A DNA stretch of 64,000 nucleotides from Acidimicrobiales bacterium (lineage in GTDB: Bacteria; Actinomycetota; Acidimicrobiia; Acidimicrobiales; Aldehydirespiratoraceae): assembly GCA_041394245.1 (NCBI GenBank), contig JAWKIR010000002.1, positions 2,858,970-2,922,969 of the forward strand. Direction: 5' to 3'. The position numbers were made by a program, and so were the translations under genes. How positions within the stretch are numbered: the first letter of the stretch is position 1; every line of letters starts with the position of its first letter. A model generated the notes under the pieces. That model ran no database searches. It was not told the origin of the DNA and was given only the letters and a program-made list of their open reading frames with translations. Below are positions 6,688-60,411 of this stretch, one piece after another.

Positions 6688-6817
6688 GGAGGACTCCTCT
6701 GCCGATCGATGTCGGCCGCAGCGTCGGTTGCCCCCTGCGCCACATGAGAGACTGGGTCGATGCTGTCGATCGCTGCGCTCCGATCCGCCCCGTCGTCGGG
6801 CGAGGGGTAGGTCGCTC

Positions 6818-9493
6818 GTGCCCGAGATTCCGGCGGGGATCGTGACGTTCCTGTTCACCGATGTCGAGGGGTCGACGCGGCTGTGGGCGGCCGACGCCGA
6901 GGCCACCGCGCGGAGCTTCGAACGCCACGACGAGATCATCCGCGACGCGATCGAGCGCTGCGGCGGCTACGTCTTCGGTTGGGCCGGTGACCACTTCCGC
7001 GGCGCTTTCGGTGATCCCGAGGCGGCGGTCGCCGCAGCGGTGGCTGCGCAGGCGGCGCTGGCGTCGTGTGACTGGCACGGCGACCCGGCACTGCGGGTGC
7101 GGATGGGTCTGCATCGCGGCCGCTCGACCCAGCGGGCCGGCGACTACTTCGGGCCGGTGCCCAACACGGCGGCGCGGTTGGAGGCACTCGCCGCCGGCGG
7201 GCAGATCCTGCTGTCGGCCGCCGTCGCCGACCTGGTCGACGTCGAGATGCTGGCGCTCGGCCAGCACCGTTTGCGTGACGTCCCCGAGCCCGTCGACATC
7301 TTCCAAGTCGGCGTCGAGTCGTTCCGGCCGCTCCAGGTCATCGACCCGTCGCTGTCGACCCTCCCGCTCCCCGGGTCACCGCTGATCGGACGACAACGCG
7401 AAGTCGGGCGGATCCGCCAGCTGCTCGAGACCTCGGCGATGGTGACGCTCACCGGATCCGGTGGCTGTGGGAAGACCCGGCTGGCCGTGGAGGTCGCCTA
7501 CCAGGAACTGCCGAGCCGATCCGACGGCTGCTACTTCGTCGACCTGTCGAGCGTGTCGGACGGGTCCGAGCTGCCGGCCGCCCTCGCGATCGCGGTGCGC
7601 CTCGAGTTCGGCGGCTCGGACGAAGGAGCGCTCGATCAGGTGATCGCGCACCTGGAGCGACGCGATGCCCTCCTCGTTCTCGACAATTGCGAGCACATCG
7701 TCGACGACTGCGCAGTGTTCGCCGAGCGCCTCCTGGCCCGCAACAGCGCGACCGCGGTGCTCGCGACCACCCGGGAGCGTCTCGACGTGGCGGGAGAGGA
7801 TGTGGTCGCCGTCGGTTCGCTGAGCATCGAGGGCGACGCTCCGGCCGTGCAACTCTTCGTCGAGCGGGCAAGGGCGGCGAGCCCGACCTTCACCTGCGGT
7901 GATGAGCCCGACGATCCTGTGCGGGCGACCGTGGGCGAGATCTGTCGACAGCTCGACGGCATGCCACTCGCCATCGAACTCGCCGCCGCCCGAGTGTCGG
8001 TGCTGACGCCCGCCCAGCTGCTCGATCGTATGTCCGACCGATTCCGTCTCCTGTCCGGCGGGCGCGGTCGGCACAAGCGGCGGACACTCCAGGCGACGCT
8101 CGACTGGTCCTACGACCTGCTCGACGAGGACGAGCAGCAGTTCTTCCGGCGTTGCGGGGTCTTCGTCGGGTCCTTCGACCTTCCCGCCGCGGTCGCCGTT
8201 TCGGGCTTCGACGACTATGACGCCATCGACTTGCTCGGCTCTCTCGTCGCCAAGTCGCTCCTGGCGATCGACGACTCGCCCGGCAATCCGACCACGCGGT
8301 ACCGGATGCTCGAGACCATCCGCATCTATGCCGGTGACCTGCTCGCACGGTCCGACGATGTGCTCGCGGCCCGCGAAGCCCACCTGCGCTGGTTCCGTTC
8401 CCGAGCGGTCACGCAGGATTTCGTCGAGGCGGCCGACCTGAACCGGGCGCGCGGGCTCAGGGCCGACTGGCCCAATCTCGCGAGTGCCCTCGAGTGGGCG
8501 CTGGTGCGTGGCACCGATCCGGAGACGGGCGCCACCGGGAGCGAGGTCGCCGCCCACCTCGCGTTCGGTTGTCAGGGCCTCTGGGAGGCGCAGGTGCCGG
8601 CGATCGAGGGACGTCGCTGGGTCGAGCAGATCGCCGAGGACCTCGAGGCCGGGGAGTGCCGTGACTGGATGCGATACATCAGCGTCGTGCTCTCCATGCA
8701 GCTCGACGACTTCGCCGTGGTCCACCGGCAACTCGAGGAACTGATCGCGGCCGAGGGCACGGTGCCCGAGGTGTTGGCACAGGCGGCGGGGCTGATAGCG
8801 TTCCTGTGCGGTCGTCAGGACCGGGATCGGGCCCGAGCGCTCGCCGAGCGAGCCGAGCAGGTGGTGACCGAGCACCGTTTGGCCGGGGAGCATCTCACGC
8901 CCGGTATATGGGCCAGCGGGTGCCTGGCGCTCTACGAGAACCGCGCCGACGTGTCGTTGCCCGAGTTCGCCAGGGCTTCTGCACTGTTGGAGGCCACGGG
9001 GCGTCACACCAACCATCGGGTGATGGCCGGGCTCGCGCTGGCATCGGCCCACATCCTCATCGGCGATCCGGCCCGGGCGCTCGACATCGTCGAGTCGGGA
9101 GAATGGGCGTCGTCGGTGTGGGATTCGTCGCCGACCGTGCGGGCGCTTGCGCTCGTCGACCTCGGACGGACCCCCGAGGCCGCCGAGCTGGTGATCGACT
9201 TCGGCTACGCGGCGCTACGAGGTCGGCTCAGCCGCATGGCCAACGACGCGCTGGTCGGGTTGGCCGCACTGGCGATCAAGCGCGGCGAGGAGGCACATGC
9301 CTGGGTCCTGCTCCAACAGGCCGCGTCGCCGAAGACCCCCTTCACCATCGCGCTGGCGGAGGGACTGGCCGATCGGCTCGGCCACGGCGAGGACCTGCGA
9401 GCCATCCATCGCGACCGTCGGCGGCCGCTGACGGAGCTCGACGCGTCCGAGCATCTCCGGGCCGAGCTCGACCGGATTCGGCTCGTTCGCTGA
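6818..9493 (+). CDS. Class III adenylate/guanylate cyclase fused to a STAND/AAA ATPase and TPR-like repeats
   Basis: GTG at 6818 (VPEIPAGIVTFLFTDVEGSTRLW). Cyclase motifs GDHFRGAF and PNTAARL. P-loop GSGGCGKTRLA. Long helical-repeat C-terminus. No HTH seen. Confidence 0.85.
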   Translation: MPEIPAGIVTFLFTDVEGSTRLWAADAEATARSFERHDEIIRDAIERCGGYVFGWAGDHFRGAFGDPEAAVAAAVAAQAALASCDWHGDPALRVRMGLHRGRSTQRAGDYFGPVPNTAARLEALAAGGQILLSAAVADLVDVEMLALGQHRLRDVPEPVDIFQVGVESFRPLQVIDPSLSTLPLPGSPLIGRQREVGRIRQLLETSAMVTLTGSGGCGKTRLAVEVAYQELPSRSDGCYFVDLSSVSDGSELPAALAIAVRLEFGGSDEGALDQVIAHLERRDALLVLDNCEHIVDDCAVFAERLLARNSATAVLATTRERLDVAGEDVVAVGSLSIEGDAPAVQLFVERARAASPTFTCGDEPDDPVRATVGEICRQLDGMPLAIELAAARVSVLTPAQLLDRMSDRFRLLSGGRGRHKRRTLQATLDWSYDLLDEDEQQFFRRCGVFVGSFDLPAAVAVSGFDDYDAIDLLGSLVAKSLLAIDDSPGNPTTRYRMLETIRIYAGDLLARSDDVLAAREAHLRWFRSRAVTQDFVEAADLNRARGLRADWPNLASALEWALVRGTDPETGATGSEVAAHLAFGCQGLWEAQVPAIEGRRWVEQIAEDLEAGECRDWMRYISVVLSMQLDDFAVVHRQLEELIAAEGTVPEVLAQAAGLIAFLCGRQDRDRARALAERAEQVVTEHRLAGEHLTPGIWASGCLALYENRADVSLPEFARASALLEATGRHTNHRVMAGLALASAHILIGDPARALDIVESGEWASSVWDSSPTVRALALVDLGRTPEAAELVIDFGYAALRGRLSRMANDALVGLAALAIKRGEEAHAWVLLQQAASPKTPFTIALAEGLADRLGHGEDLRAIHRDRRRPLTELDASEHLRAELDRIRLVR

Positions 9494-9523
9494 GCGCGCC
9501 GGAAGGGGGACGCGAGAGGACCC

Positions 9524-9553
9524 TTGACAGAGAACATCGAAAACGCATGAAAT
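9524..9553 (+). promoter_or_regulatory. Putative promoter of the toxin operon (TTGACA -35, TGAAAT -10-like), possibly giving a leaderless mRNA
   Basis: TTGACA at 9524-9529, an 18-nt spacer, then TGAAAT at 9548-9553 in a local AT-rich patch. ATG at 9561 lies 7 nt after the -10. AATGCATT palindrome at 9551-9558. Confidence 0.4.
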
Positions 9554-11588
9554 GCATTCAATGTCTCCACAACTCACGCCGCGACCCGCTGATCTCTCGA
9601 CGACCGGATCGTCCGACACGCTCGTTCTCGACGTGCCGGCCGCCCGCGAACTGGTCGGGGCGCTGACGAACGCCGCCGAGGCGCTGGCCGTCGATCACCT
9701 TGCGCTGCGGTCGATGCTCGACGAAGCCACCGCCATCCTCCGAGCCGACCACACGGGCGCACTGGTGCCGCTCACGGCCGCGCGTCAGGCATGCGCCGGA
9801 CTCGCTGCGGATCTGAGGTTCCGTGTCGATCTGGTCGAGCGGACCACACACTCGCTCGACCGGATCGACGAATTGTCGCGGGGCGACTCGGCCTGGGGAA
9901 CCCGCGAGCGCCGACGCCTGCTGCTCGGTCTGGTCGGCGGCGATGTCGACCACGCCCGGCGGGTCGAACGGGCGATGGCGGCAGGGCACGATGCCGCCGC
10001 GGCATTCCGGATCGTCGATGCCGAGCTGCGCCTCGAGTATCGGGTCGGTGCGCTCATGGAGGCGTTTTCGATCGACGAGGCCGCCGCCCTCGCCATGGTC
10101 GAACGGGTCGACGCGGCACTGATCGATCTCCTCGACCGGGGCTACGCCACCGACGACGCAGTGGCCGCGCTCGCGATCGTCGAGAACTTCGGGCTCGACC
10201 TCGCCACCGCACTCGACCATGCCGCTGCCGTCGGGATCGACCTGCACGCCGCACTCGGACAGATGCTCACGGCCCGCGCGCTCGGGGTGACCCTGGCCGA
10301 GTATGTCGCGCTCACCGGTCTGGAGGAGCACTTCGCGGTGTTCGACAACGCCACCGGAGGCTCCCGCGACCAGCGGGTGTCGGCCAAGGACCTCGAGTTC
10401 GTCGTCGCCCATCCGTGGCGGTTCACTCCGAGCCAGGTACTCGCCGCCCAGGCGCTGCTCGACCAGCCGCTCCTGCGCAATCGGCTCGACACCGCCAACC
10501 ACAACGCCGACCTCTTCTCCGGCACCGCCTTCGGGTCGATGGAGCCCGGCGACGGCCTGATCGCCGACGTCGACCTGCACGCCTTCCTGCTGAAGGCCCA
10601 GCTCCACACGATCCTCGGCGACTACGCCGACCGGATCGACGTCGCGAACGATCCGTCGGGCATCGTCGACGGGTTCCGTTCCGAGAACGACTTCCGCGCG
10701 TTCATCGCCGACAACCCCGACCTCCCCGAGTCGGTCCTGGCCGCGGCGACGGTGGCACTCGAGTCCGGATGGTTCGACCAGACCTGGTGGGACGAGCACA
10801 AGGACGAGCTGGCGATGGGGGCGGCGCTGCTCGCCGCAGGGCTGGTCGTCGTCGCGACCGGTGGTGCCGCCTCGATGATCCTCGTGGTCGGCGCCGGCGC
10901 GCTCGCCGGTGGAGCGACGACGGTCGCCATCAACCTCGCCACCGGCGCACCGATACTCGACGACGCCCTCATGAACTCGGTCAGGGGTGGCTTCATCGGC
11001 GCCGGCGTGCATGGTGTCGTCACGGGCGCAGCGGCCTACGGGACGGCGTCGACGGGGGTCGCTCGGGTCGCCGCCGTCGCCGGCGCGACATCGGGTGCCG
11101 CCGACGTCGTGGCCGCCGGAGGCGTCGACCTGCTCATCGACGAGCAGTATGAGGCGGCCGTCCACGGCATGGCCAACGACGTCGGCAATGTCGCCGGGGC
11201 GATCGACCTCGGCCTCAGTGCCGGCGAGTGGGCGAGCCGTACGCCGGTCACCTTCGATTCGGTCGAGGAGCAACTCGCCGCGCTGTCCGACCGGATCAGC
11301 CGACAGCGCCAGCTCCGCCACATCAAGGATTCACCGCTGCACCGGTCGGGGGGCTACTTCGTCGATCCGGCCGATGCCCAGCGGGTGCTCGACGCCGTCC
11401 ACGATGGGTCGGCGGAGGTCTTCGGGATCACTCGCGGTCAGGATCTCCTGGTGCGCTACGACGAGGTCATCGGGATCCATGTCAACCGCAACGGCGGAGT
11501 CGTGCCGGGCATCGAGACCACGACGTTCACCGTCAAGGGAAGCGCGAAGCCGAGTGTGGTGCCGGTGCGTCCGGGGAGGACGGAGTGA
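9552..11588 (+). CDS. Polymorphic toxin: helical N-terminal region, Gly-rich hydrophobic region, C-terminal Ntox50-like toxin domain
   Basis: 678 aa. Gly/Ala-rich TM-like stretch at ~10805-11140. The C-terminus RQLRHIKDSPLH...DAQRVL...VRYDEVIGIHV...TTTFTVKGSAKPSVVPVRP matches the recalled pattern of polymorphic toxin type 50 domains. Alternative start at 9561. Confidence 0.7.
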   Translation: MHSMSPQLTPRPADLSTTGSSDTLVLDVPAARELVGALTNAAEALAVDHLALRSMLDEATAILRADHTGALVPLTAARQACAGLAADLRFRVDLVERTTHSLDRIDELSRGDSAWGTRERRRLLLGLVGGDVDHARRVERAMAAGHDAAAAFRIVDAELRLEYRVGALMEAFSIDEAAALAMVERVDAALIDLLDRGYATDDAVAALAIVENFGLDLATALDHAAAVGIDLHAALGQMLTARALGVTLAEYVALTGLEEHFAVFDNATGGSRDQRVSAKDLEFVVAHPWRFTPSQVLAAQALLDQPLLRNRLDTANHNADLFSGTAFGSMEPGDGLIADVDLHAFLLKAQLHTILGDYADRIDVANDPSGIVDGFRSENDFRAFIADNPDLPESVLAAATVALESGWFDQTWWDEHKDELAMGAALLAAGLVVVATGGAASMILVVGAGALAGGATTVAINLATGAPILDDALMNSVRGGFIGAGVHGVVTGAAAYGTASTGVARVAAVAGATSGAADVVAAGGVDLLIDEQYEAAVHGMANDVGNVAGAIDLGLSAGEWASRTPVTFDSVEEQLAALSDRISRQRQLRHIKDSPLHRSGGYFVDPADAQRVLDAVHDGSAEVFGITRGQDLLVRYDEVIGIHVNRNGGVVPGIETTTFTVKGSAKPSVVPVRPGRTE

Positions 11589-11968: not shown

Positions 11969-13548
11969 CTCGACCAGGCAACAGCGGGATCGTCGACCTC
12001 TCGCACGTCGGCGTCGTCGGTGAAGGCGACGAAACGATCGAACGAACGCAGGAACCAACGGTCGTGGGTGACGCACACCACCGTCCCCTCGAACACTGCG
12101 AGTCCGGCCTCGAGGGCCTCGGCCGACGCGACGTCGAGATTGTCGGTCGGTTCGTCGAGCAGGAGCAGGTTGGCGCCGTCGATCTCGAGCAGCAGGATCT
12201 GGAAACGCGCCTGTTGACCTCCCGAGAGGGTCTCCCATGCCTGATCGGCGGCCAGGTTCAGCTCGTAGCGCCGGAGCCGCGCCATGGCCGGCCCCCGATT
12301 GAGGTCGCGGGCCGCGAGGATGTCGATCAGGGGGCGTCCGCGGAGTTCGGGATGATCGTGGGTCTGGTTGAACAGGCCCGCCACGACTCGGGCGCCCAGT
12401 TTCCACTCGCCCTCGTGGTCGACGTCGCCGCCTGCGAGGAGGCGCAGGAAATGCGACTTGCCGGTGCCGTTGCGGCCGACCACGGCGACCCGTTCACCGA
12501 ACCAGATCTCCAGATCGAACGGATACGTGAGGTCGCTGAGTTCGAGCTGTTCGCACATCACGACGCGCTTGCCGGTGCGGCCCCCCTCGAGTCGCATGTC
12601 GATCTTCTGCTCGCGGGCGAGCTCGCGGGGTGCACCCTGCTCGTCGAAGTGACGAAGCCTGGTCTCGGCGGCGCGGGCCCGACTCGCGTTGGCGTCGCTC
12701 ATCGCGGCGCGGCGCTTCTGCTCCTTCATGTGGTTCACGAGACGCTTGCGCTCCTCGGCCCACCGGCGCTGCTCGTCGCTGATGAGCGACAGGCGATGCT
12801 CGCGCGCCTCGCTCCAGGTCGAGAACGATTCACCGTGGGTCCACGCGCCGTTCGCCTCGATCGTCACGACCTTCTGCGACGCCTCGGCGAGCAGCTCGCG
12901 GTCGTGGCTGACGAAGAGCACCGCCTTCGGGGTCGCTCGGATCCGTTCGGCCAACCACTCCTTGCCCGGCACGTCGAGGAAGTTGTCGGGCTCGTCGAGC
13001 AGGAGGACGTCGTGTTCGGAGCGCAGCAACAGTTCCAACGCCATGCGCTTCTGCTCACCTCCGGAGAAGGTCGCCATCGACCGATCGGCGATGTCGGACC
13101 ACGGGAGGTCGGTGACGCGATGGGCACACTCCTCCCAGAGGACCTCGGCGTCGTAGCCGCCGATGCCGCCCCAGAGATCGAGCGCCTTCGCGTACTTCAT
13201 GCCGTCGTCGGTGCCATCCATCATCTGGCCGTGGGCCCGATCGAGGCGAGCGCCGACCTCCCGGAGCTCGGGGGAGGACAGCGACAGATAGAGATCGCGC
13301 ACGGTCGTCGAGCTGTCGAGGGCACCGACCAGCTGGGTCATCACGCCGAGCGAACCCTGGACGGAGATGGTGCCGTCGGTCGGCGTTTCCGTCCCGGCGA
13401 CGAGTCGCATCACCGTGGTCTTGCCGGCGCCATTGGCGCCGACCAAGGCGACGTGCTCGCCCTCGCCCACGCGAAACGACACGTCGTCGAGCAGCATCTG
13501 CCCGTCGGGAAGCGACCATCCGAGATGGCTGACCTGGATGGAACCCAC
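11965..13548 (-). CDS. ABC-F family ATPase (two ABC domains, no TMD)
   Basis: 527 aa. Two Walker A sites (GANGAGKTT, GRNGTGKSH), two signature motifs (FSGGEQKR, LSGGQQAR) and an inter-domain linker. Confidence 0.9.
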   Translation of the reverse strand: MGSIQVSHLGWSLPDGQMLLDDVSFRVGEGEHVALVGANGAGKTTVMRLVAGTETPTDGTISVQGSLGVMTQLVGALDSSTTVRDLYLSLSSPELREVGARLDRAHGQMMDGTDDGMKYAKALDLWGGIGGYDAEVLWEECAHRVTDLPWSDIADRSMATFSGGEQKRMALELLLRSEHDVLLLDEPDNFLDVPGKEWLAERIRATPKAVLFVSHDRELLAEASQKVVTIEANGAWTHGESFSTWSEAREHRLSLISDEQRRWAEERKRLVNHMKEQKRRAAMSDANASRARAAETRLRHFDEQGAPRELAREQKIDMRLEGGRTGKRVVMCEQLELSDLTYPFDLEIWFGERVAVVGRNGTGKSHFLRLLAGGDVDHEGEWKLGARVVAGLFNQTHDHPELRGRPLIDILAARDLNRGPAMARLRRYELNLAADQAWETLSGGQQARFQILLLEIDGANLLLLDEPTDNLDVASAEALEAGLAVFEGTVVCVTHDRWFLRSFDRFVAFTDDADVREVDDPAVAWSS

Positions 13549-47774: not shown

Positions 47775-47810
47775 GTGCCATCGCATCGGATGTGAACGTT
47801 CCCCTGCGTC

Positions 47811-47830
47811 CGGAGCGAGGTTTCGCTCCG
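47811..47830 (+). promoter_or_regulatory. Perfect 8-bp stem-loop abutting the heliorhodopsin RBS
   Basis: CGGAGCGA-ggtt-TCGCTCCG, immediately followed by tAGGAGGtgggGAAGGA and the start codons at 47849 and 47855. Confidence 0.5.
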
Positions 47831-47854
47831 TAGGAGGTGGGGAAGGACGTGGCA

Positions 47855-48652
47855 ATGCTCGATTTCGACCGACAATCCGTGGAGATCGGCGAGGGCCGTC
47901 TCGCCAAGCTGCGCCGCTTCAACCTGGTGATGGGTCTGGTCCATCTCGTGTCCGGTGCGCTGATGGTGGTGCTCGGCAACGACTTCGAGCTGGAGATCAG
48001 CTCGTTCAGCCTGGGCGGCCCCCCGGGCACCCCGCTCGCCGACGGCACCCTCGATTCGGTGATCGGCGTTCCACTCGCGTGGGCGACCGCGTCGTTCCTC
48101 TTCCTGTCGGCCTTCTTCCATTTCGTGATCGCCACCGTCGGGTTCCGTGCCTACGGCTCGGAGCTCCGCCACGGGCGCAACCGGTTCCGCTGGGTCGAGT
48201 ATGCGCTGTCGTCGACGCTGATGATCGTGTTGATCGCGCTCGTCACCGGCATCACCGATCTGGCCGCGCTCATCGCGATCGCGTTCGTGAACGCCTCGAT
48301 GATCCTCTTCGGCTGGATCATGGAGATGGTCAACGACGCCGACCGCCCGGTCTGGTGGACGCCCTTCTGGTTCGGGTCGATCGCCGGGATCGGTCCGTGG
48401 GTCGCCATCGCGACCTATCTCGTGGTCAACCTCAGCCGTGAAGGCGCCGAGGGTCCCCCCGGCTTCGTCTACGGGATCATCGTCACGATCTTCGTGCTGT
48501 TCAACATCTTCGCCATCAACCAATGGCTGCAGTACCGCAGGGTCGGCCGTTGGGCCGACTACGTCTACGGCGAGACCGCCTACATCGTGCTCAGCCTCGT
48601 GGCGAAGAGTGTCCTGGCATGGCAGATCTTCGTCAACACGCTGATCGATTGA
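47855..48652 (+). CDS. Heliorhodopsin
   Basis: Near-colinear motif match to recalled HeR 48C12: RFN..MG..H, GGPPGT, FFHFVI, FRWVEYALSS (counterion Glu), VNASMILFGW, PFWFGSIAGI.PW, PGFVYGII, YIVLSLVAKSVLAWQIF (Schiff-base Lys). Alternative GTG starts at 47837 and 47849. Confidence 0.9.
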   Translation: MLDFDRQSVEIGEGRLAKLRRFNLVMGLVHLVSGALMVVLGNDFELEISSFSLGGPPGTPLADGTLDSVIGVPLAWATASFLFLSAFFHFVIATVGFRAYGSELRHGRNRFRWVEYALSSTLMIVLIALVTGITDLAALIAIAFVNASMILFGWIMEMVNDADRPVWWTPFWFGSIAGIGPWVAIATYLVVNLSREGAEGPPGFVYGIIVTIFVLFNIFAINQWLQYRRVGRWADYVYGETAYIVLSLVAKSVLAWQIFVNTLID

Positions 48653-51972: not shown

Positions 51973-53052
51973 TCAGGAGCCGACCGGTCGAGGGAGCGGA
52001 CCCGAGAAGTCGATGGCGATGATCCTCAGGGCGCGGTGGCCCGGATAGCCCGGCGCCTCGAGCCACGCGTGATAGGCGAGCAGCGCCCGCCCCGACCGGT
52101 CGACGAAGAACTCGGCGCCGCCCGGACCTTCCGCCCCGGGGGAAGAGGCGATGATCGGCCCCTCGAAGGGCTTGTCGCACGGGCCGACGGCGGACGTGCA
52201 ACGGGCCAGTCCGATGCCGTAGGCGGCCTGGTTGTACCAGTTCCCCGAGTAGGCGAGCCAGTACGTGCCGTCGACGATGTGCATGCTCGGGGCCTCGACG
52301 TGGGGGTATTCCCAGTCCTGGTCGGTGGCGATGAGGCGCACTGGCTCGCCGATCAACGAGCGTCCGTCCGGGGCGAGTCGTTGGCTCCAGATCGATGATT
52401 CCCGACGCAGGGTGATGCCATCGTTCTTCCAGAGCAGGAAGATCGAGCCGTCGTCATCGACGAAGGGGCTCGGATCGATGGCGCCGCCGAGATCGGTGGG
52501 ACAGAGCCAGGGCTCGGTGCTGACGTCGACGAAGGGGCCGTCCGGTGCGGCGCCTTCGGCGACCGAGAGGCAGTGCTTGTCGGTGCCGTCGACCCTGGCC
52601 GTGTAGTAGAGGAGGTAGTGGTCGTCGACGGCGAGCACCGCGGGCGCCCAGCTCGACAGTGGGGTCGCCCAGCCGGGAAGCGTTGTGAGTGCGTCGGTCG
52701 GACCCGACCACTCGGCCAAGGTCGGCCCGTCGAGTCGCTGCACCTGTACGAACCCCGACGCCGTGGCGTAGGCGTGGTAGCCGTCGTCGTCGGCCAGCAC
52801 GAACGGGTCGGGGAAGTCCCGATCCCACACGAGTCGATCGTCGTCGACCCGATCCTCGGGAACAGTGGTCGTGGTCGTGGTCGTCGTGGTGGTGGTGGTC
52901 GTCGTCGTCGTCGTGGTGGTCGTCGTCGTCGTGGTCGTCGTCGTCGTGGTGGCCGTCGTGGTCGTCGATGGTGAGCCAGCGGTGTCGCCGGCGCCGCACC
53001 CGCCGAGCAGGGCGAGCGCCGCGATCAGTACCGGCACCCAGGGCCGCGGCAA
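51973..53052 (-). CDS. GH43-family glycoside hydrolase lipoprotein with poly-Thr linker
   Basis: TTG start. Lipobox LLGGC. FPDPFV, WAPAV...YYT, DPSPFVDDDG, EAPSM...YWLAYS motifs. Confidence 0.8.
   Translation of the reverse strand: MPRPWVPVLIAALALLGGCGAGDTAGSPSTTTTATTTTTTTTTTTTTTTTTTTTTTTTTTTTTVPEDRVDDDRLVWDRDFPDPFVLADDDGYHAYATASGFVQVQRLDGPTLAEWSGPTDALTTLPGWATPLSSWAPAVLAVDDHYLLYYTARVDGTDKHCLSVAEGAAPDGPFVDVSTEPWLCPTDLGGAIDPSPFVDDDGSIFLLWKNDGITLRRESSIWSQRLAPDGRSLIGEPVRLIATDQDWEYPHVEAPSMHIVDGTYWLAYSGNWYNQAAYGIGLARCTSAVGPCDKPFEGPIIASSPGAEGPGGAEFFVDRSGRALLAYHAWLEAPGYPGHRALRIIAIDFSGPLPRPVGS
52864..52965 (-). repeat. Imperfect ACC/ACG triplet repeat encoding TTTT-A-T(29)
   Basis: Counted codon by codon: 29 consecutive Thr codons (52864-52950), one Ala, then four Thr. 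Confidence 0.9.
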
Positions 53053-53053
53053 C

Positions 53054-53626
53054 TCAGGGTTCCAGGCAGAAGGGGATGGAGTCGCCGGGGGTGTCCGGTG
53101 ACCCCGTCTCGCCGGCGGGGTCGTAGATCTTCACGGCGTCGATGGACGTGAACTGCAGCAGCGTCGGGACGATCTGGTTGGCCACCGTGAAGGTGGACCC
53201 GCCGCTCGAGCAGCCCCCGGCGAGGCGCACCTGGGCGGTGCGCTCGAGTATCGAGAACTCGGCGATGCCGGTCGCCTCCGACGCCACGAACCGGAGTCCG
53301 CCCGCCTGTTCGTCACTCGTCGGACCCTCGAAGAGCGCGTCGAGCGCGGCAGCTTCCGGGGAGGCAGGATCCACGGCGCGCTCGACCGGGCGAACGTAGG
53401 GCAGGCGCCCGATGTTGAAGGCCTCCTCGTCGAGGAAGAACACCTGGACGACGATGGATTCGGGCTCGCTGGTGCTCGGCGGGACTGTCGTCGATGTGGG
53501 AGATGTTGTCGAGGTCGATGTTGCCTCCGGAGCGGTCGTGGTGGATGTGGGCGAACCCTGTGGGTCGTCGCCGCACGCCGCGCTGAGCACGCAGATGGCG
53601 ACCAACACCGGGAGAACGCGAGACAT
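53054..53626 (-). CDS. GerMN-domain lipoprotein
   Basis: ATG at 53626. Lipobox LSAAC, S/T/P linker, VQVFFLDEE...AALDALFEGPT...LAGGC pattern. Confidence 0.65.
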   Translation of the reverse strand: MSRVLPVLVAICVLSAACGDDPQGSPTSTTTAPEATSTSTTSPTSTTVPPSTSEPESIVVQVFFLDEEAFNIGRLPYVRPVERAVDPASPEAAALDALFEGPTSDEQAGGLRFVASEATGIAEFSILERTAQVRLAGGCSSGGSTFTVANQIVPTLLQFTSIDAVKIYDPAGETGSPDTPGDSIPFCLEP

Positions 53627-53681
53627 GACGCGAGTCAATCCGGTGCGGCAGCGACGCGCCAGGGTCCTTGGGCCCGAGCGC

Positions 53682-53708
53682 CGCTGCCGCCAGGCGGTTG
53701 CGGCAGCG
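53682..53708 (-). terminator. Putative terminator hairpin after the leftmost island gene
   Basis: CGCTGCCGC (53682-53690) pairs with GCGGCAGCG (53700-53708), 9-nt loop. A third copy of the arm at 53645-53653 allows an alternative pairing. Confidence 0.35.
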
Positions 53709-53724
53709 CCGGCCGGCGGGCCAA

Positions 53725-54213
53725 TCAGCCGAGTGCGCCCGACGCGAGCAGTGAGGTGATCGTCCCTGCGACGAACACGGCGAGCATCACCGCCATCGTG
53801 GCGGCACCGATGGTGACGGCGCGGCCGAGGTCGCTCATGTGGCCCCCGAGGACGTCGATCCGTTCGCCGATGCTGTCCATTCGCATGCTCAGGCTGTCCA
53901 TGCGCGAACTGAGCGATGCCCCCTGTGCGGCGACGAGTCGGGTGAGCTCCTGCAGGTCGCTCGAGGTCTGATCAGCCCGCAGCGTCAAGGCTTCGATGCG
54001 TCCCTCGACCCCGCCGATGCGTCCCTCGACGCCGCCGAGTCGGTCCTCGACGCCGCCGAGTCGGCGGTCGAGCAGCGCGATGTCGTCCTTGGTGGCGAGC
54101 TGCGTCCACGGGATCGGCGGCATGGACTCCATCATGGCATCCGCAGCGCTCTCGTCCATCAGTTCGATGAGGTACTGGCGGATACGAAGGCGGGTGTTCT
54201 CGTCGACGGGCAT
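53725..54213 (-). CDS. Tail-anchored coiled-coil protein, paralogue A (DUF1640/XhlA-like)
   Basis: MPVDENTRLRIRQYLIELMDESAADAMMESMPPIPWTQLATKDDIALLD, GGVExRL heptads, C-terminal TM. RBS AGGAGGGG. Confidence 0.7.
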   Translation of the reverse strand: MPVDENTRLRIRQYLIELMDESAADAMMESMPPIPWTQLATKDDIALLDRRLGGVEDRLGGVEGRIGGVEGRIEALTLRADQTSSDLQELTRLVAAQGASLSSRMDSLSMRMDSIGERIDVLGGHMSDLGRAVTIGAATMAVMLAVFVAGTITSLLASGALG

Positions 54214-54279
54214 CGGCCCCTCCTGGTTCGAGAGTTGGAGGGGAAGTCCGTGTCGTGACCCTAGGACGAGTGTGTGACA
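54214..54279 (-). promoter_or_regulatory. Conserved upstream module A: TGTCACA palindrome, 8 nt, TAGGGT -10, anti-SD/SD hairpin
   Basis: Minus strand reads TGTCACAC-N8-TAGGGT...CTTCCCCTCC-13 nt-GGAGGGGccgATG. Arms at 54237-54243 and 54217-54223. Confidence 0.5.
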
Positions 54280-54420
54280 GAAGGTCGTGGTGGTGAATGC
54301 GATCCCCGGAAAACGCCGGTTGGCGGTGTGCGGGTGCGCTCGCATCGGTGATGGCCCTGCCATGTTGAAGTCGACGTACTCCGCCGCAGCGTCGTCGCAC
54401 GCGTCGAGTCTGCTGCTGCA

Positions 54421-54528
54421 CTCAGCCGCGTCTCGGCTGTGCCGCGAAGTCGCTGAGTCGTTGCATGACGGCATTGCTCTCGTCGTCGAAGACGCCTCCG
54501 TAGACCCCGAGGATCAGCGCCGGGTTCG
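54421..54528. repeat. Left copy of a 108-bp direct repeat (70 bp perfect), equal to the integrase 3' end
   Basis: 54459-54528 is identical to 58319-58388. 54421-54432 is identical to 58281-58292. Constant offset of 3,860 bp. Confidence 0.9.
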
Positions 54529-55375
54529 AGTGGCCGGCCCACTTGGCCGCGGCACGGGGCGACGCCAGCGAGCGGCTCCACATCGCGACGCACGTGTGGC
54601 GGAGATCGTGGATCCGGAGGCCGTCGAGCCCGGCGGCTTCGGTGGCCGGTTTCCAGATGCGTCGCCGGAAGTTGGCGTCGCCGAGCGGCTTGCCGTTCGG
54701 TGAGGTCCAGATCAGCTCGTCGGGTTCGACGCCGCGGCTCGCCATGTCGATGACGAGCTCTTCCATCACGAAGCTCGGGACGGGGACCGTCCGGCGCCCG
54801 GCCCGTGACTTCGGTGGGCCGAAGGTCGGTGTGCCGTCGCGGCTGAGGGTACGCGTTTCGGTGACGTCGATCGTGGTGGTCGCCGCGTGGACTCGCTTGG
54901 CCCGGAGGGCTGCGAGCTCGCCGTTGCGGAGACCGGCGTAGGCGCCGACGAGCACGAAGGTGCGATACGGCGCGGCGATCGCATCGGCGAGGCGTTCGAC
55001 CTCCGCGGGTTCGAGGAACGTCGGCTCCTTGTGGGGCACTTGGGGGAGCGAGAGCCCCCGCGTCGGGTTGTGTTCGAGCAACCGGGACCGCACGGCGATG
55101 TCGAGGCTCTGGGCGAGCAACCCGGCGGCCTTGCGCACAGTGCGGGGGGACAGGTCGGTCGCCGCGAGCTCGGCGACGAAACGCTGGGCGTCGCGAAACC
55201 CGATCCGGTCGATCGCCACGTCGCCGAAGAACGGCTCGAGATGACACCGGAAGATCGATTCGTCGCGCAGACGGGTCGAGGGTCGGACACCGACCCTCGT
55301 CGAGATGAATTCGGCCCACCAGTCGCGAAACGACGGCGCGGGTTCCGCAGGGAGGCCCAGCGATGGCGCGTCCAC
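54422..55375 (-). CDS. Tyrosine recombinase / phage-type integrase
   Basis: GTG at 55375. SAM-like N-terminal domain, AYAGLRNGEL (R), HDLRHTCVAMW (HxxR), GHSNPALILGVYGGVF (Y). Confidence 0.9.
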   Translation of the reverse strand: MDAPSLGLPAEPAPSFRDWWAEFISTRVGVRPSTRLRDESIFRCHLEPFFGDVAIDRIGFRDAQRFVAELAATDLSPRTVRKAAGLLAQSLDIAVRSRLLEHNPTRGLSLPQVPHKEPTFLEPAEVERLADAIAAPYRTFVLVGAYAGLRNGELAALRAKRVHAATTTIDVTETRTLSRDGTPTFGPPKSRAGRRTVPVPSFVMEELVIDMASRGVEPDELIWTSPNGKPLGDANFRRRIWKPATEAAGLDGLRIHDLRHTCVAMWSRSLASPRAAAKWAGHSNPALILGVYGGVFDDESNAVMQRLSDFAAQPRRG

Positions 55376-55389
55376 GGGTCTGGCGCAGT

Positions 55390-55608
55390 TCAGGCGAGGG
55401 TGGTGGCCAGCACCGCGACGACGCCGACGATCCGCGTCATCATGGCGATGACGATCATGCCCGTCGTCTCGGCGCACCGCACTGGCAGCAGCCCTTCGAG
55501 CAGCGCCATCTCGCCGGAGAAGTTGTGGATCTGGGGGTCGATGCGTTTCGTTCCTGCGTCGGAGAGGCGCCGGTGGAGGCGGAGGCGTACTGGTTCGTCG
55601 ACGGACAT
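55390..55608 (-). CDS. Short paralogue D of the tail-anchored family (72 aa), 14 nt upstream of the integrase
   Basis: MSVDEPVRLRLHRRL... and a C-terminal TM (MIVIAMMTRIVGVVAVLATTL). Lacks the coiled-coil middle. Confidence 0.5.
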   Translation of the reverse strand: MSVDEPVRLRLHRRLSDAGTKRIDPQIHNFSGEMALLEGLLPVRCAETTGMIVIAMMTRIVGVVAVLATTLA

Positions 55609-55671
55609 GGGTTCCCTCGGATCGGAGTGCAAGGAGGGAAGTGACGGCGAACCTACGCGTCGGGTGTGACA
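55609..55671 (-). promoter_or_regulatory. Conserved upstream module D
   Basis: TGTCACAC-N8-TAGGTT...CTTCCCTCC-15 nt-GAGGGAAcccATG. Arms at 55634-55640 and 55612-55618. Confidence 0.45.
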
Positions 55672-55726
55672 GTCCTGCGCCGACGGGATGCCGGCTCGCT
55701 CGGTCCGTGGATCCCCGAGGTGAGTG

Positions 55727-56260
55727 TCAGAGATTGAGCAGACCCACGGCCACGCCGGTGACGGCGAGGAACAACGTGATCATGGCGAACACGAGGATCC
55801 GGGTGGTCTCCATCCATCGCAACGACAGCCGCCCCTCCATCGCGAGGAGTTGCCCCTCGAAGACCGAGCGGCTGCCGTCGAGCTGCGCGCCGAACCCTTC
55901 GAGCTTCGCGCCGACCCCCTCGAGCTGGGCATCGACGGTGTCGAAGCGCCGGTCCATGGCGTTGAACCGTTGGTCGACGTCGTCGAACCGTCGGTCGACG
56001 ATGTCGAGGCGCCGGTCGACGGTGTCGAGGCGCCGGTCGACGGTGTCGAGGCGCCGGTCGACGTTGTCGAGGCGCCGGTCGACGTTGTTGAATCGTTGGT
56101 CGACATCGTTGAACCGCAGGAGCATCTCGTCGCGGCGAGCGATCTCCGACCAGTCGAACGGCGGCATGGATTCGAGTATGGCATACGCCACCTCGGGTTC
56201 GAGCTCGTGATCGATCAGCCATTGGCGGAAACGGAGGCGAGCGTCCTGCTCAGGGGTCAT
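55727..56260 (-). CDS. Tail-anchored coiled-coil protein, paralogue C
   Basis: MTPEQDARLRFRQWLIDHELEPEVAYAILESMPPFDWSEIARRDEM, about nine VDRRLDx heptads, C-terminal TM. Confidence 0.7.
   Translation of the reverse strand: MTPEQDARLRFRQWLIDHELEPEVAYAILESMPPFDWSEIARRDEMLLRFNDVDQRFNNVDRRLDNVDRRLDTVDRRLDTVDRRLDIVDRRFDDVDQRFNAMDRRFDTVDAQLEGVGAKLEGFGAQLDGSRSVFEGQLLAMEGRLSLRWMETTRILVFAMITLFLAVTGVAVGLLNL
55931..56119 (-). repeat. Nine tandem 21-bp in-frame repeats (heptad repeat VDRRLDx)
   Basis: gtcgacggtgtcgaggcgccg-type units. Units at 56015-56035 and 56036-56056 are identical. Confidence 0.9.
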
Positions 56261-56319
56261 GGGTCCTCCCGGATGGGGTGGGAGGGGAAGTGGACCCACC
56301 GTACGCGCCCGGTGTGACA
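56261..56319 (-). promoter_or_regulatory. Conserved upstream module C
   Basis: TGTCACAC-N8-TACGGT...CCCCTCCC-9 nt-GGGAGGAcccATG. Arms at 56280-56285 and 56265-56270. Confidence 0.45.
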
Positions 56320-56593
56320 CTGGGGGCCGGTCCTCGCGTCGAGCGGTTCTTTGAGAACGCGTCGTCTCGACCGGCCAACAGATACAGAACGCGCCGCCGT
56401 TGGTGGGGAAGAGCGGGATCCAACAGCGCGGGAACCCGATCGCGACGCCGGCGAGCACGCGTGCGATCCACGACCAGTGGCGAGCCGAGCTGGAAGGAGG
56501 CTGAAATCGGTTGGTCGCGTTCGAAGCTGCACCGGTTGCACCCCACTGAGGGGAGCCCAGGAGAATTCATCGAAGCCGGTGTCTCCAGTGTGA

Positions 56594-57001
56594 TCAGGAG
56601 CTGGTCGCGAGGACGCTGACGATGAACACCGCAATGGTGATCGCGAGGGTGGCGGCGCCGATCGTGACCGCCCGGCCGAGGTCGGTCATGTGGTTGCCCA
56701 ACGCGTCGATCCGGCCGCCGATGCCGTCCATGCGCGTGCCCAACGAGGTGCCCTGCTGGGCGACGGCCCTGGTGAGCTCCTGCAGATCGCTCGACGTCTG
56801 GTCCATCCGCGCCGTCAGCGAGTCGAGGCGGTGCTCGACGCCGCCCAAGCGTGTGTCGAGCGCGGCGATGTCGTCCTTCGTGGCGAGTTGCGTCCACGGG
56901 ATCGGTGGCATGGACTCCATCATGGCATCCGCGGCGGCTTCGTCCATCAGCTCGATCAGGTACTGGCGGATACGAAGTCGGGTGTTCTCGTCGGCGGGCA
57001 T
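56594..57001 (-). CDS. Tail-anchored coiled-coil protein, paralogue B
   Basis: MPADENTRLRIRQYLIELMDEAAADAMMESMPPIPWTQLATKDDIAALD is nearly identical to the N-terminus of A. C-terminal TM. Confidence 0.7.
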   Translation of the reverse strand: MPADENTRLRIRQYLIELMDEAAADAMMESMPPIPWTQLATKDDIAALDTRLGGVEHRLDSLTARMDQTSSDLQELTRAVAQQGTSLGTRMDGIGGRIDALGNHMTDLGRAVTIGAATLAITIAVFIVSVLATSS

Positions 57002-57064
57002 CGGCCCCTCCTTGGTCGACGTGTTGGAGGGGAAGTGGGCGCACGCTACGGCGCGGCTGTGACA
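57002..57064 (-). promoter_or_regulatory. Conserved upstream module B
   Basis: TGTCACAG-N8-TAGCGT...CTTCCCCTCC-14 nt-GGAGGGGccgATG. Arms at 57026-57032 and 57005-57011. Confidence 0.5.
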
Positions 57065-57089
57065 GTCGACATCGCTCTCGCGCCGTCAT

Positions 57090-58232
57090 TCATGAAGCAA
57101 GCGGTCGACGAGCTGCCAGGTCGGCCCGGTTGGCCGCCGCGACGCCGGCGCCGTAGCCCGACCCGTCGAATGTGGCGTGAGACGGGCGCAGGCGCGAGAG
57201 GGAAGGGAAGACCTCGTCCACCATGCGGTCGACCGCAGCCGCGCGGCTGGCGAGGACGGGGAGGAGTGGTCCGTCGGCCGCGGTGGTAGCGGCGGCCCGC
57301 TCGGTGGCCCGTGCGTTCTCCGCGGACAGGCGCTCGTCGATTCGTCCTGCGAATCCGATCAGGAATGAACGCCGAAAGGCGCGCGTCGTCGACTTGCCGT
57401 AGCCGTCGGTGGTCGATCCGTGGCGCAGCATGGCCCGGGACGCCTGAACCAGCAGCGAGGTGAACAGGAGTTCGGTCGCTTCGAGGTCGATGGTGTAGCC
57501 GATGACCGTGGCCAACCCGAGGCCACTGTGGCGAATGGCCGTCGCCCGATTCGACCGCGCGATCACGCTGAGTAGCCCGAACTTCTCACGGTCGTAGGGC
57601 CGCTCGACGGCCAGCCGGATCGCGTCGGGGCCCGTGTGCGGCCCGGAGCCGGCGGCGCTGCGCAACGCGTCGGCGAGCGAGTGATCGGTGATGAGCGCCT
57701 GGGCCTTGGCGGTGAACGCCTCGGCTTCTGCCTCGAACGCACTCGACTCGGCCTTGGCCAGCATGGCGCGCACCTTCCTCAGGATGTCGTGGTCCAACGC
57801 TCCGCCCGTTGCGGGCGACGCATCGCCAACGGAACGTGGCGCCGACGCATCGGCCTCGCCAGGGAGGGGTCCCAGCTGCCGCAGCCCGGGCAGGAAGGCC
57901 AGTCGAGACCACAGTTCGAGTCGGTCGGTACGCCAGCCCCGATGGCGGGACTCCACGGCTTCGTCATCGTCGCCCGCCACATTTCGGACGTGGTTGATCT
58001 GCACCTGCCACCGGGGCGAGAGTCGATCGCCGTAGCCCTGAACCTCGTGTTCGCGCAGGATCAGCGTGGCAGCGAGGCGCAGGGCGGTCGGGGTGAGGTC
58101 ATGGTCGACCATCGCCAACAGATCGCCCGGCATCCAGCCGATCTGCCAGGCGTAGGTGATGAGCGCGACGAGGCCGGCATCGAGTTCGTCGGGATCTTCG
58201 GGTGGGCGGTGTGGTGTGAAGTGGTTCGGCAT
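57090..58232 (-). CDS. DUF2786-domain protein
   Basis: ATG at 58232 with GAGAGGGTGGA upstream. ILRKVRAMLAKAESSAFEAEAEAFTAKAQALI is the recalled DUF2786 signature. TGTGACA palindrome at 58254-58260. Confidence 0.7.
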   Translation of the reverse strand: MPNHFTPHRPPEDPDELDAGLVALITYAWQIGWMPGDLLAMVDHDLTPTALRLAATLILREHEVQGYGDRLSPRWQVQINHVRNVAGDDDEAVESRHRGWRTDRLELWSRLAFLPGLRQLGPLPGEADASAPRSVGDASPATGGALDHDILRKVRAMLAKAESSAFEAEAEAFTAKAQALITDHSLADALRSAAGSGPHTGPDAIRLAVERPYDREKFGLLSVIARSNRATAIRHSGLGLATVIGYTIDLEATELLFTSLLVQASRAMLRHGSTTDGYGKSTTRAFRRSFLIGFAGRIDERLSAENARATERAAATTAADGPLLPVLASRAAAVDRMVDEVFPSLSRLRPSHATFDGSGYGAGVAAANRADLAARRPLAS

Positions 58233-58281
58233 GCGTCCACCCTCTCGCGCCGGTGTGACACGGCTGAGCGGCTTCGTCAAC

Positions 58282-58388
58282 TCAGCCGCGTCGCGGGGGT
58301 GACGCGTAGTCGCTGAGCCGTTGCATGACGGCATTGCTCTCGTCGTCGAAGACGCCTCCGTAGACCCCGAGGATCAGCGCCGGGTTCG
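58282..58388 (-). pseudogene. Orphan 3' fragment of an integrase gene (right copy of the direct repeat)
   Basis: Encodes ...NPALILGVYGGVFDDESNAVMQRLSDYASPPRRG*, matching the last ~35 codons of the intact integrase. No upstream integrase sequence. Confidence 0.75.
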
Positions 58389-58464
58389 CCGCAACACCGC
58401 CGCGCCGATTGATCCAGCCGTAGCATCCTGCTACAGTCGTATCAGTCCAGTACAGGAGATTCTG

Positions 58465-58842
58465 ATGGCGAAGGGTGCCTCGACCCCCACCCGAGTGAAC
58501 GCGGACGTTGCGGCGGCTGCTGCCGCGGTGGCGCCCGCCGAGAACCGGACGACAGCTGAGCAGATCAACTACTGGGTCAGGCTCGGCATGCAAGTCGAGC
58601 GGGCGGCGTCCGCCACCAGCCGACGTGTGCTGGCCGTCGTCGCCGGTGACGCCCAGTTCTCGACCCTCGACCCGCACGACCGAACAGCCGCCCACGCGTC
58701 GATCGATGCCCGGATGGCGGAGCGTGTGGCCGACCAGCGATTCGGGCCCGCCGCGCGCAAGGCGGGTCGCGTGACGGTGTCGATCGACGACGACGGCGCA
58801 CTCGTCGAGATCGCGCCGGACGGTACTCGTCGGCTCCTGTGA
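58465..58842 (+). CDS. ParD-like type II antitoxin
   Basis: AGGAG 7 nt upstream. AENRTTAEQINYWVRLGMQVE matches the recalled ParD_like motif. Confidence 0.7.
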   Translation: MAKGASTPTRVNADVAAAAAAVAPAENRTTAEQINYWVRLGMQVERAASATSRRVLAVVAGDAQFSTLDPHDRTAAHASIDARMAERVADQRFGPAARKAGRVTVSIDDDGALVEIAPDGTRRLL

Positions 58843-59408
58843 GCCGTCTCGATCTGATTGCAGGACCGAACGGCGCAGGAAAGTCCACGCTCTACGAGCG
58901 AGTGATCGCCCCTGACCGGCCTGGTCTGCCCTTCGTCAACGCAGACCGCATCGCACGCGAGCGATTCCCGGGCGCGGAAACAACGGAGGCCTACAAGGCT
59001 GCGGAGATCGCCGCAAAGGCGCGGGAAGCGCTCATCGCCGCCCGCCTCGACTTCTGCACCGAAACCGTGTTCTCGCATGAGTCGAAGGTCGACCTGGTCG
59101 CGAGCGCTTCTTCATCTGGCTACGACGTCGTCTTGCACGTGGTCATGATCCCTCTCCGTCTGTCTGGGCCCCGAGTCGCCGCTCGTGTCGCCAACGGAGG
59201 ACACGGCGTACCGGCCGAAAAGCTCGAGACGCGGTACGAGCGCCTCTGGCCGCTTGTCGTGGCCGCAGTGCCGCTGTGCCATCGTGCGGTGTTCTACGAC
59301 AACTCCGCAGACGCGGGCCCGCTCGAGGTCGGCTCCTACCGCTACGGCGTCCCCGACTACGAACCTCGGTGGCCCGCGTGGTCCCCGGATCCAGTCCGAA
59401 CACTCTGA
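58839..59408 (+). CDS. Zeta-toxin / COG4185-type P-loop kinase toxin
   Basis: GTGA overlap with the antitoxin. LIAGPNGAGKSTL Walker A. 189 aa. Confidence 0.75.
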   Translation: MSRLDLIAGPNGAGKSTLYERVIAPDRPGLPFVNADRIARERFPGAETTEAYKAAEIAAKAREALIAARLDFCTETVFSHESKVDLVASASSSGYDVVLHVVMIPLRLSGPRVAARVANGGHGVPAEKLETRYERLWPLVVAAVPLCHRAVFYDNSADAGPLEVGSYRYGVPDYEPRWPAWSPDPVRTL

Positions 59409-59824: not shown

Positions 59825-60019
59825 ATGGCTCGAACCAACATCGAGATCGACGACGAAACGCTCGACGTCGTGATGCGGCGCTACGGCATCCACACCAAGA
59901 CCGAGGCGGTCGATCTTGCGTTACGGCGGCTCGCCGGTGAACCCATGACGATCGCTGAAGCCTTGGAGATGCGCGGTGCCCGTGCGATCAGCGACGTGCC
60001 GGCTGATACCGGTCCATGA
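59825..60019 (+). CDS. vapB: VapB-family antitoxin
   Basis: [36 protein letters not shown]. Confidence 0.85.
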
Positions 60020-60411
60020 TCCTCGCCGATACTTCGGCATGGGTTGAGTTCGACCGTGCCACCGGCTCTGGCGCCGACGAGCGCCTCGCCGGATTGATCG
60101 AAGCAGGCGGCGGCGACCTTGCCGTCACCGAACCCGTCATGATGGAGGTGCTCGCAGGTGCACGGACCGACCAGCGCAGCAACGAGCTTCGCCGGCTCCT
60201 GACATCATTTCGATGGATCGCCGCCGACCCCGTCGCCGATTTCGAAGGTGCGGCACTGCTCTACCGACAGTGTCGATCTGCCGGCGTCACTCCGCGAGGT
60301 CTCATCGACTGCATGATTGCCACGATCTCGCTGCGATCCGGAGCAGAACTCTTGGCGGTCGACGGCGACTTCGCCGCGATCGCGGAAGTCGTTCCTCTGC
60401 GCCTCGCCTAG
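60016..60411 (+). CDS. vapC: PIN-domain VapC toxin
   Basis: ATGA overlap. [12 protein letters not shown]..., E43, and the D..IA and DGDF acidic residues typical of PIN domains. Confidence 0.9.

Follow-up and report, generated by a model that had tools for sequence, protein, structure and literature searches.

Here we describe a cluster on the minus strand of a 64-kb window of DNA (hereafter the window) from a metagenome-assembled genome (MAG) of an Acidimicrobiales bacterium, in which four paralogous genes for tail-anchored coiled-coil proteins (A, B, C and a probably decaying copy, D') are interleaved with a tyrosine integrase. The observed protein architecture, leader sequences and synteny suggest that the genes encode DUF1640-type scaffolds behind translationally throttled leaders, associated with an integrase module that accretes and decays in an island rich in toxin-antitoxin (TA) systems; we give this reading as a whole somewhat better than even chances. 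The four open reading frames (ORFs), the Phage_integrase-family gene between D' and A and the upstream module common to the four genes are all real, as the initial annotation of this DNA had proposed, and the NCBI gene calls for A and D' have the same coordinates as the ORFs. The arrangement appears moderately novel.

The proteins are built from a two-helix head of ~38 residues, a beta-layer neck, a stalk made of repeats and a C-terminal membrane anchor. Their paralogy exceeds chance, with BLASTP aligning A to C at E = 2e-18 and C to D' at E = 8e-8, and a hidden Markov model (HMM) of the head domain recovered A (E = 1e-30), B (9e-31) and C (6e-22) among the window proteins. The head carries the signature RLRxRxxLxELxDxxAADAMMESMPPxxW. 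An N-terminal motif previously assigned to all four proteins fits the N-terminus of C (MTPEQDARLRFR) only loosely, and the ESMPP..W..ATKD block, likewise assigned to all four, is absent from D'; in C the neck reads IARRDE rather than ATKD. A and B, said to diverge past residue ~48, can instead be aligned over their full length (76% identity by MAFFT; 67% over 154 columns by BLASTP), with blocks of 14 and 7 residues absent from B in the MAFFT alignment. The hydrophobic C-terminal segment is present in all four proteins, its best 19-residue hydropathy windows scoring 2.1–2.5, and small residues abound in the type-1 anchor. From neck to transmembrane (TM) segment the distance is 75 residues in B, 93 in A and 115 in C. 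An AlphaFold2 (AF2) model of B, with a mean predicted local distance difference test score (pLDDT) of 83, places helices at residues 4–18 and 21–30, a break at 39–41 and a 92-residue helix at 42–133.

Arg and Lys residues precede the TM segment, and there is no signal peptide. Because of this charge distribution (positive-inside), and because only 3–12 residues follow the hydrophobic window, the predicted topology is N-in/C-out, with head and stalk in the cytoplasm and almost nothing on the cell surface. This predicted orientation speaks against the diversifying surface function that had been suggested for the cluster, and makes that idea doubtful. A DNA-binding role of the head was also considered and dropped, the head being acidic by residue count.

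Family members are numerous beyond the window. The head HMM gave 114 matches across 72 loci in Acidimicrobiia and Nitriliruptoria (below, L numbers denote related loci and P numbers family proteins), with several loci per genome and 1 to 6 copies per locus. When 1.84 billion proteins were searched with the head profile, 1,710 representatives (of clusters at 50% identity) were recovered at E ≤ 1e-3, and among the best 147 of these a C-terminal hydrophobic segment was found in 119 and the ATK motif in 117. A beta-layer neck with the consensus [aliphatic]-A-T-K-[polar]-[DE] has been described in DUF1640 membrane proteins, where it opens the stalk (PMC4786415). LATKDD at residue 39 of A and B fits this consensus, while the neck of D' has been lost. 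The best sequence matches in the PDB were the MATKDD construct 5apz and the multi-ATKED protein 6h9l (E ~ 0.002), and the CCDC90-like profile PF07798 was matched by 19 of 141 distant relatives (best E = 4e-8). Since the PF07798 matches are confined to these 19, membership is transitive only, and we regard the window proteins as a divergent branch that may work like DUF1640 proteins, not as certified members of PF07798. The earlier label "DUF1640-like" thus holds by architecture, on the neck motif, the 5apz and 6h9l matches and the PF07798 matches of distant relatives; its companion, "XhlA-like", comes down to sub-threshold coiled-coil noise (E = 0.08 for C, with hits under the cut-off in 8 of 23 relatives). 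For the four proteins, Pfam, NCBIfam, PHROGs and PADLOC turned up nothing but coiled-coil noise. In P0108, P0099, P0101 and other relatives the neck motif ATK(D/E)D occurs two to four times within the stalk, as it does in 6h9l and in Tcar0761 of Thermosinus.

On this basis A, B and C would be intact members of an actinobacterial DUF1640/CCDC90-like branch, distantly related to the mitochondrial MCUR1/CCDC90 family, and D' a member that has decayed; the LATKDD neck is expected to nucleate a trimeric coiled coil. To our knowledge, the architecture of prokaryotic DUF1640-type proteins has been solved and their function is not known. By analogy with what has been proposed for MCUR1 and CCDC90B, our guess is that the family might act as a membrane-anchored trimeric scaffold, keeping a partner-binding head a fixed distance beneath the membrane.

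That distance would differ between paralogues and between strains. The heptads of A and C are genuine 21-nt (7-residue) tandem repeats (Table 1), and among near-identical strains stalk length changes in steps of 7 or 14 residues, that is, by whole repeat units: six proteins with identical ends measure 130, 144, 144, 144, 158 and 172 residues, and the nearest relative of C (P0063) is 21 residues shorter. Repeat gain and loss could therefore quickly alter the length of the stalk, which would be about 11 nm in B, 14 nm in A and 17 nm in C. Homologues vary in both copy number and length, and so do not conform to the single-copy genes of fixed length that the initial annotation had set against its own proposal. 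The head, with a dN/dS of 0.13 between A and B, is by this measure under purifying selection. The genes are also mosaic: A and its L001 orthologue differ little at synonymous sites in the head (dS 0.07) and much in the remainder (dS 0.61), and their anchors are of different subtypes; natural hybrids of an A-type head and a type-2 anchor were also found (P0045-47, P0050-51). Three 20-kb loci (L031, L043 and L054) hold arrays of 5–6 family genes, some divergent and some 5'-truncated, and no integrase of the window's subfamily was detected in these arrays.

The shortest paralogue, D', differs from the full-length D-type genes of relatives (paralogues of 147–176 residues) by an in-frame internal deletion of 75 codons, which spans second head helix, neck and stalk and leaves the first 16 and last ~55 residues. 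The same deletion occurs in L001, where the copy is frameshifted and the integrase behind it is also deleted; the ORF is open in the one genome that has an intact integrase 14 nt downstream. D' is probably a decaying copy, because its TM segment contains an Arg, its dN/dS is relaxed (0.42) and the copy with the same internal deletion has also decayed in L001.

Each of the four genes has its own copy of the upstream module, as had been claimed from inspection. Its parts follow in the order TGTCACA, 9–10 nt, a TAnnnT -10 element, ~7 nt, a ACTTCCCCTC box, a loop of 12–20 nt, the Shine-Dalgarno (SD) sequence and the start codon, and it recurs upstream of family members in many genomes. The module is clade-specific. 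On the minus strand of the window TGTCACA occurs five times, always before A, D', C, B or a DUF2786 gene; all 17 copies of the composite motif in 601 kb from related loci stand before a family gene; and CTTCC is found in 56% of family upstream regions, as compared to 1% of 214 controls. TGTCACA was also tried as a -35 element and rejected, as it lies only ~10 nt from the -10. The CU box is complementary to the SD of its own gene (CCCCTCC/GGAGGGG, CCTCCC/GGGAGG, TTCCCTC/GAGGGAA), the window leaders are predicted to fold into hairpins, and the predicted pairing probability of the SD core was higher in family leaders (0.79) than in controls (0.55; p = 9e-14). No relevant Rfam match was obtained at E ≤ 10 for positions 53500-58600. 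These thermodynamic and conservation patterns are consistent with every family gene being its own expression unit, in which the CU box at the start of the leader would pair with the SD and throttle translation. A longer conserved leader precedes genes of a distant subfamily in Aldehydirespiratoraceae (L033, L038, L042, L046, L049 and L050, ~9930-10000), with a hairpin TCACTCGGGGACGGTGA, a CCCCCTCC box and GGAGG; there, the GGGGA loop could rival the SD for the CU box, as a possible three-part switch.

The fifth TGTCACA box (58254-58260) belongs to a DUF2786 gene that lies inside the cluster and was absent from the initial annotation. It has no CU-box leader. In this gene and its counterparts in L002 (10530-10563) and L005 (8520-8553), 7–25 nt separate the -10-like element from the ATG, and because the distance is so short the DUF2786 mRNAs are suggested to be leaderless. 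In L002 and L005 the box takes the form of an inverted repeat, GTCACA...TGTGAC. A trio of DUF2786, integrase and family gene is found in the window, L002, L005 and L013; a tblastn search of GenBank phages with C and DUF2786 gave no matches.

The GTG start of the integrase lies 14 nt past the D' stop, and the catalytic-region motifs HDLRH and LGVY are present. Integrases of this subfamily begin 11–28 nt after an A-, C- or D-type family gene in about 10 loci, and because this gap recurs, family gene and integrase likely form an operon, with the integrase as second cistron and DUF2786 perhaps brought under the same control by its TGTCACA box. A metagenome scan for the integrase added two loci only, and the statistics on integrase context stay small. 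Also absent from the initial annotation was a direct repeat (54420-54528 and 58280-58388) whose copies, 3.9 kb apart, are 94% identical, being 100% identical over the first ~70 nt and divergent thereafter. The C-terminal tails of the integrases and the DNA downstream of them differ in all seven loci compared. The att core may overlap the 3' end of the integrase gene itself, judging from the sequence of the repeat. No tRNA gene was found in the window, and IMG/VR contained no relatives of the family and no close relatives of the integrase.

The placing of the genes, which had been described as clustering around a recombinase, is better read as an accretion of integrase modules. Each window paralogue is closer to a relative in another genome than to the other window copies, so the cluster was apparently assembled rather than duplicated in place; recent local duplication was considered and dropped on the same ground. 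In the ParD/zeta block, 96.6% identity to L002 extends as far as position 58389, precisely the border of the integrase remnant, while the module itself is 74–89% identical to L002 and differently arranged. Decayed or doubled integrase modules occur in L001, L072 and L073, and in L001 and relatives the integrase has decayed or been deleted and the family genes have been kept. Related integrase modules may have built the cluster by integrating one after another, recombining and decaying, one clade of the family having been captured by, or having captured, a small integrase module. In L072, two integrases related to that of the window lie 3.4 kb apart (6399-10954), one with a divergent Xis/AlpA-like helix-turn-helix gene and the other behind a D-type gene, and a remnant joining the 3' end of D to the start of an integrase is found 2.4 kb further on (13351-13455).

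Table 1. Features of the cluster. In the direction of transcription on the minus strand the order is integrase remnant (58388-58282), DUF2786/DUF7168 (58232-57090), B, C, D', integrase, A.
Feature	Position	Strand	Description
Gene A	53725..54213	-	162 aa; A-type head; LATKDD neck at residue 39; ~93-aa stalk; type-1 anchor (LGRAVTIGAAT...); R2707_14425 = P0001
GGVExRL heptads of A stalk	53994..54059	-	21-nt tandem repeat, 3.1 copies (TRF)
A promoter/leader	54214..54279	-	TGTCACA 54273-54279; -10 TAGGGT 54258-54263; CU box ACTTCCCCTCC 54237-54247; SD GGAGGGG 54217-54223
Integrase 3' end, copy of 109-nt direct repeat; candidate att core overlapping integrase C-terminus	54420..54528	-	
Tyrosine integrase	54422..55375	-	317 aa; GTG start; Phage_integrase family; phrog_1 E=4e-53; MEZ5246295.1
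Gene D'	55390..55608	-	72 aa; internal-deletion derivative of D-type paralogue
D' promoter/leader	55609..55671	-	TGTCACA 55665-55671; TAGGTT; CU box TTCCCTC; SD GAGGGAA
Gene C	55727..56260	-	177 aa; C-type head; degenerate neck IARRDE; ~115-aa stalk; type-2 anchor (LEGRLSLRWMETTR...)
VDRRLDx heptads of C stalk	55878..56104	-	21-nt tandem repeats, 8.2 + 2.4 copies (TRF)
C promoter/leader	56261..56319	-	TGTCACA 56313-56319; TACGGT; CU box CCTCCC; SD GGGAGG
B-C spacer fossil	56435..56578	-	91-92% identity to AbiEii-flanking DNA of relatives L001, L002
Gene B	56594..57001	-	135 aa; A-type head; LATKDD neck; ~75-aa stalk; type-1 anchor
B promoter/leader	57002..57064	-	TGTCACA 57058-57064; TAGCGT; CU box CCCCTCC; SD GGAGGGG
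DUF2786 + DUF7168 gene	57090..58232	-	380 aa; phrog_421
Integrase remnant (last 107 nt of integrase gene)	58282..58388	-	Abuts ParD promoter region; first ~70 nt identical to intact copy
ParD-like antitoxin + zeta toxin pair, bordering module	58462..59408	+	96.6% identical to same L002 junction

Several observations weigh against DUF1640-type scaffolds with throttled leaders and an accreting integrase module. On the protein side, PF07798 was not matched at E ≤ 1 by A, B, C or D', nor by any of 23 close relatives. The head of B is modelled with moderate pLDDT only (61–73), and a Foldseek search of the AF2 model of B against the PDB returned no match, head included. The trimeric state would follow from one motif, that of the beta-layer, and this motif is degenerate in C (IARRDE). 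For the leaders, RNAalifold found no consensus pair in a MAFFT alignment of 42 sequences, because the pairing register shifts between copies; when cognate and swapped CU/SD duplexes were compared, the cognate gain was only -0.86 kcal/mol. The pairing is thermodynamic only, and a CU-rich box would pair with an SD whatever its gene. A sigma-70 and terminator scan, together with folding of the 3' flanks, gave no canonical promoter or terminator. As for the integrase, a search of +/-10 kb in other loci gave no second copy of the core, nor were other att-like repeats found flanking the integrase, so that the candidate att core is drawn from one repeat pair. This pair also fits serial insertion into resident copies, or a deletion remnant homogenised by gene conversion. 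The link to the integrase may itself be incidental, because most family members are not beside integrases. Finally, misassembly across similar modules is possible in a MAG; two of the junctions are independently backed by L001 and L002.

Three rival explanations were weighed against the scaffold reading, all of them without their own defining features. The one we consider unlikely, and no worse than that, takes the genes for an ordinary chromosomal multigene family, the integrases for mobile elements that repeatedly landed in a hot spot of recombination and the module for a family promoter. It would account for the distant relatives that lie scattered among housekeeping and metabolic genes without integrase enrichment, for the several loci per genome and for the persistence of family genes where integrases decay, but not for the 11–28 nt gap between family gene and integrase in about 10 independent loci, the TGTCACA box common to DUF2786 or the trio that recurs in four loci, the window included. 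Quite unlikely, in our view, is a toxic membrane effector (resembling a type I toxin, a holin or an abortive-infection protein) that the SD-sequestering leader silences until triggered. The predicted occlusion of the SD and the small-residue-rich type-1 anchor would suit such a role, as would neighbours in the window and relative loci (ParD/zeta, VapBC, AbiE, HEPN/MNT and Fic), the sub-threshold XhlA matches and matches of C to phage families of unknown function (phrog_12015, E = 3.9e-14). However, the proteins are unlike small toxins in having 130–180 residues and a conserved soluble head under purifying selection, and distant members sit among housekeeping genes. PADLOC gave no defence match, only coiled-coil noise at 12–16 bits; holin and endolysin genes are absent from the window cluster and from L001-L007; and neither IMG/VR nor GenBank phages contained relatives.

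We hold it very unlikely that the cluster is a system of recombinase-driven variation (a shufflon or cassette exchange), in which the integrase would recombine the 5' modules and swap stalk and anchor cassettes on purpose. Homologous recombination explains equally well the mosaics that would recommend it, namely the contrast in dS between heads and stalks/anchors (0.07 vs 0.61) and the natural A-head/type-2-anchor hybrids. The placing of the integrase in an operon with a family gene and ~200 nt of conserved 5' sequence common to A and B (88% identity) also speak in its favour, but in relatives the integrase is lost or in decay while family genes persist, and most family clusters are without one. 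Every copy has a promoter, SD and start codon, hence there is no silent cassette. The features of known systems were not found either: the integrase scored 14 bits with the integron-integrase model TIGR02249, as compared to a cut-off of 265; the family genes each have their own promoter-like module, with no structured inverted repeats at their 3' ends, whereas integron cassettes are promoterless and flanked by attC; and a search for shufflon sites gave only scattered inverted repeats of low complementarity, none of them meaningful, with all copies in direct orientation on one strand.

A more speculative proposal, to which we give little credence, is that family gene, SD-occluding leader and integrase form one regulatory unit of an undescribed small integrative element, where the trimer would act with DUF2786 to control when the integrase is produced or at which place it acts. 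The protein might then tether integrase or DNA to the membrane, or couple excision to the state of the envelope, tuned by stalk length; in a related version of the idea, head and stalk/anchor cassettes would be actively swapped by the integrase.

The surroundings of the cluster contain further features. A VapB/VapC-like pair (59825-60411, plus strand) also borders the module, beside ParD/zeta, and TA sets differ among relatives at the same site, L002 lacking VapBC and L001 lacking ParD/zeta. The B-C spacer appears to be what remains after the loss of an AbiE module. Elsewhere in the window, ~33 consecutive Thr codons (ACC/ACG; 52865-52965) form part of the linker of a GH43 lipoprotein (51973-53052, minus strand), and the adjacent GerMN lipoprotein gene (53054-53638) has a Ser/Thr-rich linker. 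Positions ~47805-48652 are 84% identical in nucleotide sequence to an L001 gene with the Pfam domain Heliorhodopsin (PF18761), and probably encode a heliorhodopsin.

If read as DUF1640-type proteins, the genes described here provide a first genomic context in bacteria for this type of family, being multi-copy, with stalks varied by slippage and a dedicated promoter and leader. They also point to candidate partners, to what appears to be a regulon box and to a translational leader absent from Rfam, all of them handles for further work. Marine Acidimicrobiia, whose mobile elements are almost unstudied, may harbour a new family of small integrase modules, of which this cluster would be an example. 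Were the scaffold reading true, the natural series of stalk lengths would be a ready-made "molecular ruler".

Parts of the cluster resemble known systems. As predicted to fold, the leaders share with ROSE and fourU thermometers and with type I toxin mRNAs a short hairpin between a pyrimidine box and the SD near the mRNA 5' end; unlike ROSE and fourU elements, they have no Rfam match and no bulged-G or U-tract signature, and their pairing register shifts. XhlA (PF10779), of PBSX-type lysis in Bacillus, likewise combines a short coiled coil in the cytoplasm with a TM segment at the C-terminus and a mobile-element background, but the window cluster is without its holin and endolysin neighbours. 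We know of no conserved head or neck in XhlA. In the Myxococcus phage Mx8 (intP/intX), att overlaps the 3' end of the integrase, and the variable integrase tails of our loci match what would be expected if flanking DNA completed the ORF at an att site of this type. SSV1 also carries att in its own integrase gene (PMC5861418), to which the 3'-end direct repeat flanking a 3.86-kb unit in the window may be likened; unlike in SSV1, only the last ~12 codons would be swapped here and the integrase gene would stay intact. In the MATKDD nonads of Thermosinus Tcar0761 (Hartmann et al., 2016, PMC4786415; 5apz) the motif is followed by I/L-A-x-L, as in the window family. The nonad array of that protein contrasts with the single neck motif of A and B and with IARRDE in C, and the trimer is here a prediction only. 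The closest parallel in overall design is with DUF1640/CCDC90-like proteins (PF07798) such as MCUR1, CCDC90B and prokaryotic homologues, whose parts, so far as they are described in the work cited in PMC7279490 (Adlakha et al., 2019, Structure 27:464), come in the same order as those of the window proteins, and whose heads have the pattern helix-G-x-x-x-A-x-x-L in common with them. Unlike these proteins, the window family has a head signature of its own and stalks of near-perfect 7- or 14-residue repeats in variable number, encoded by multi-copy genes with a dedicated promoter and leader and, in one clade, a likely operon with an integrase.

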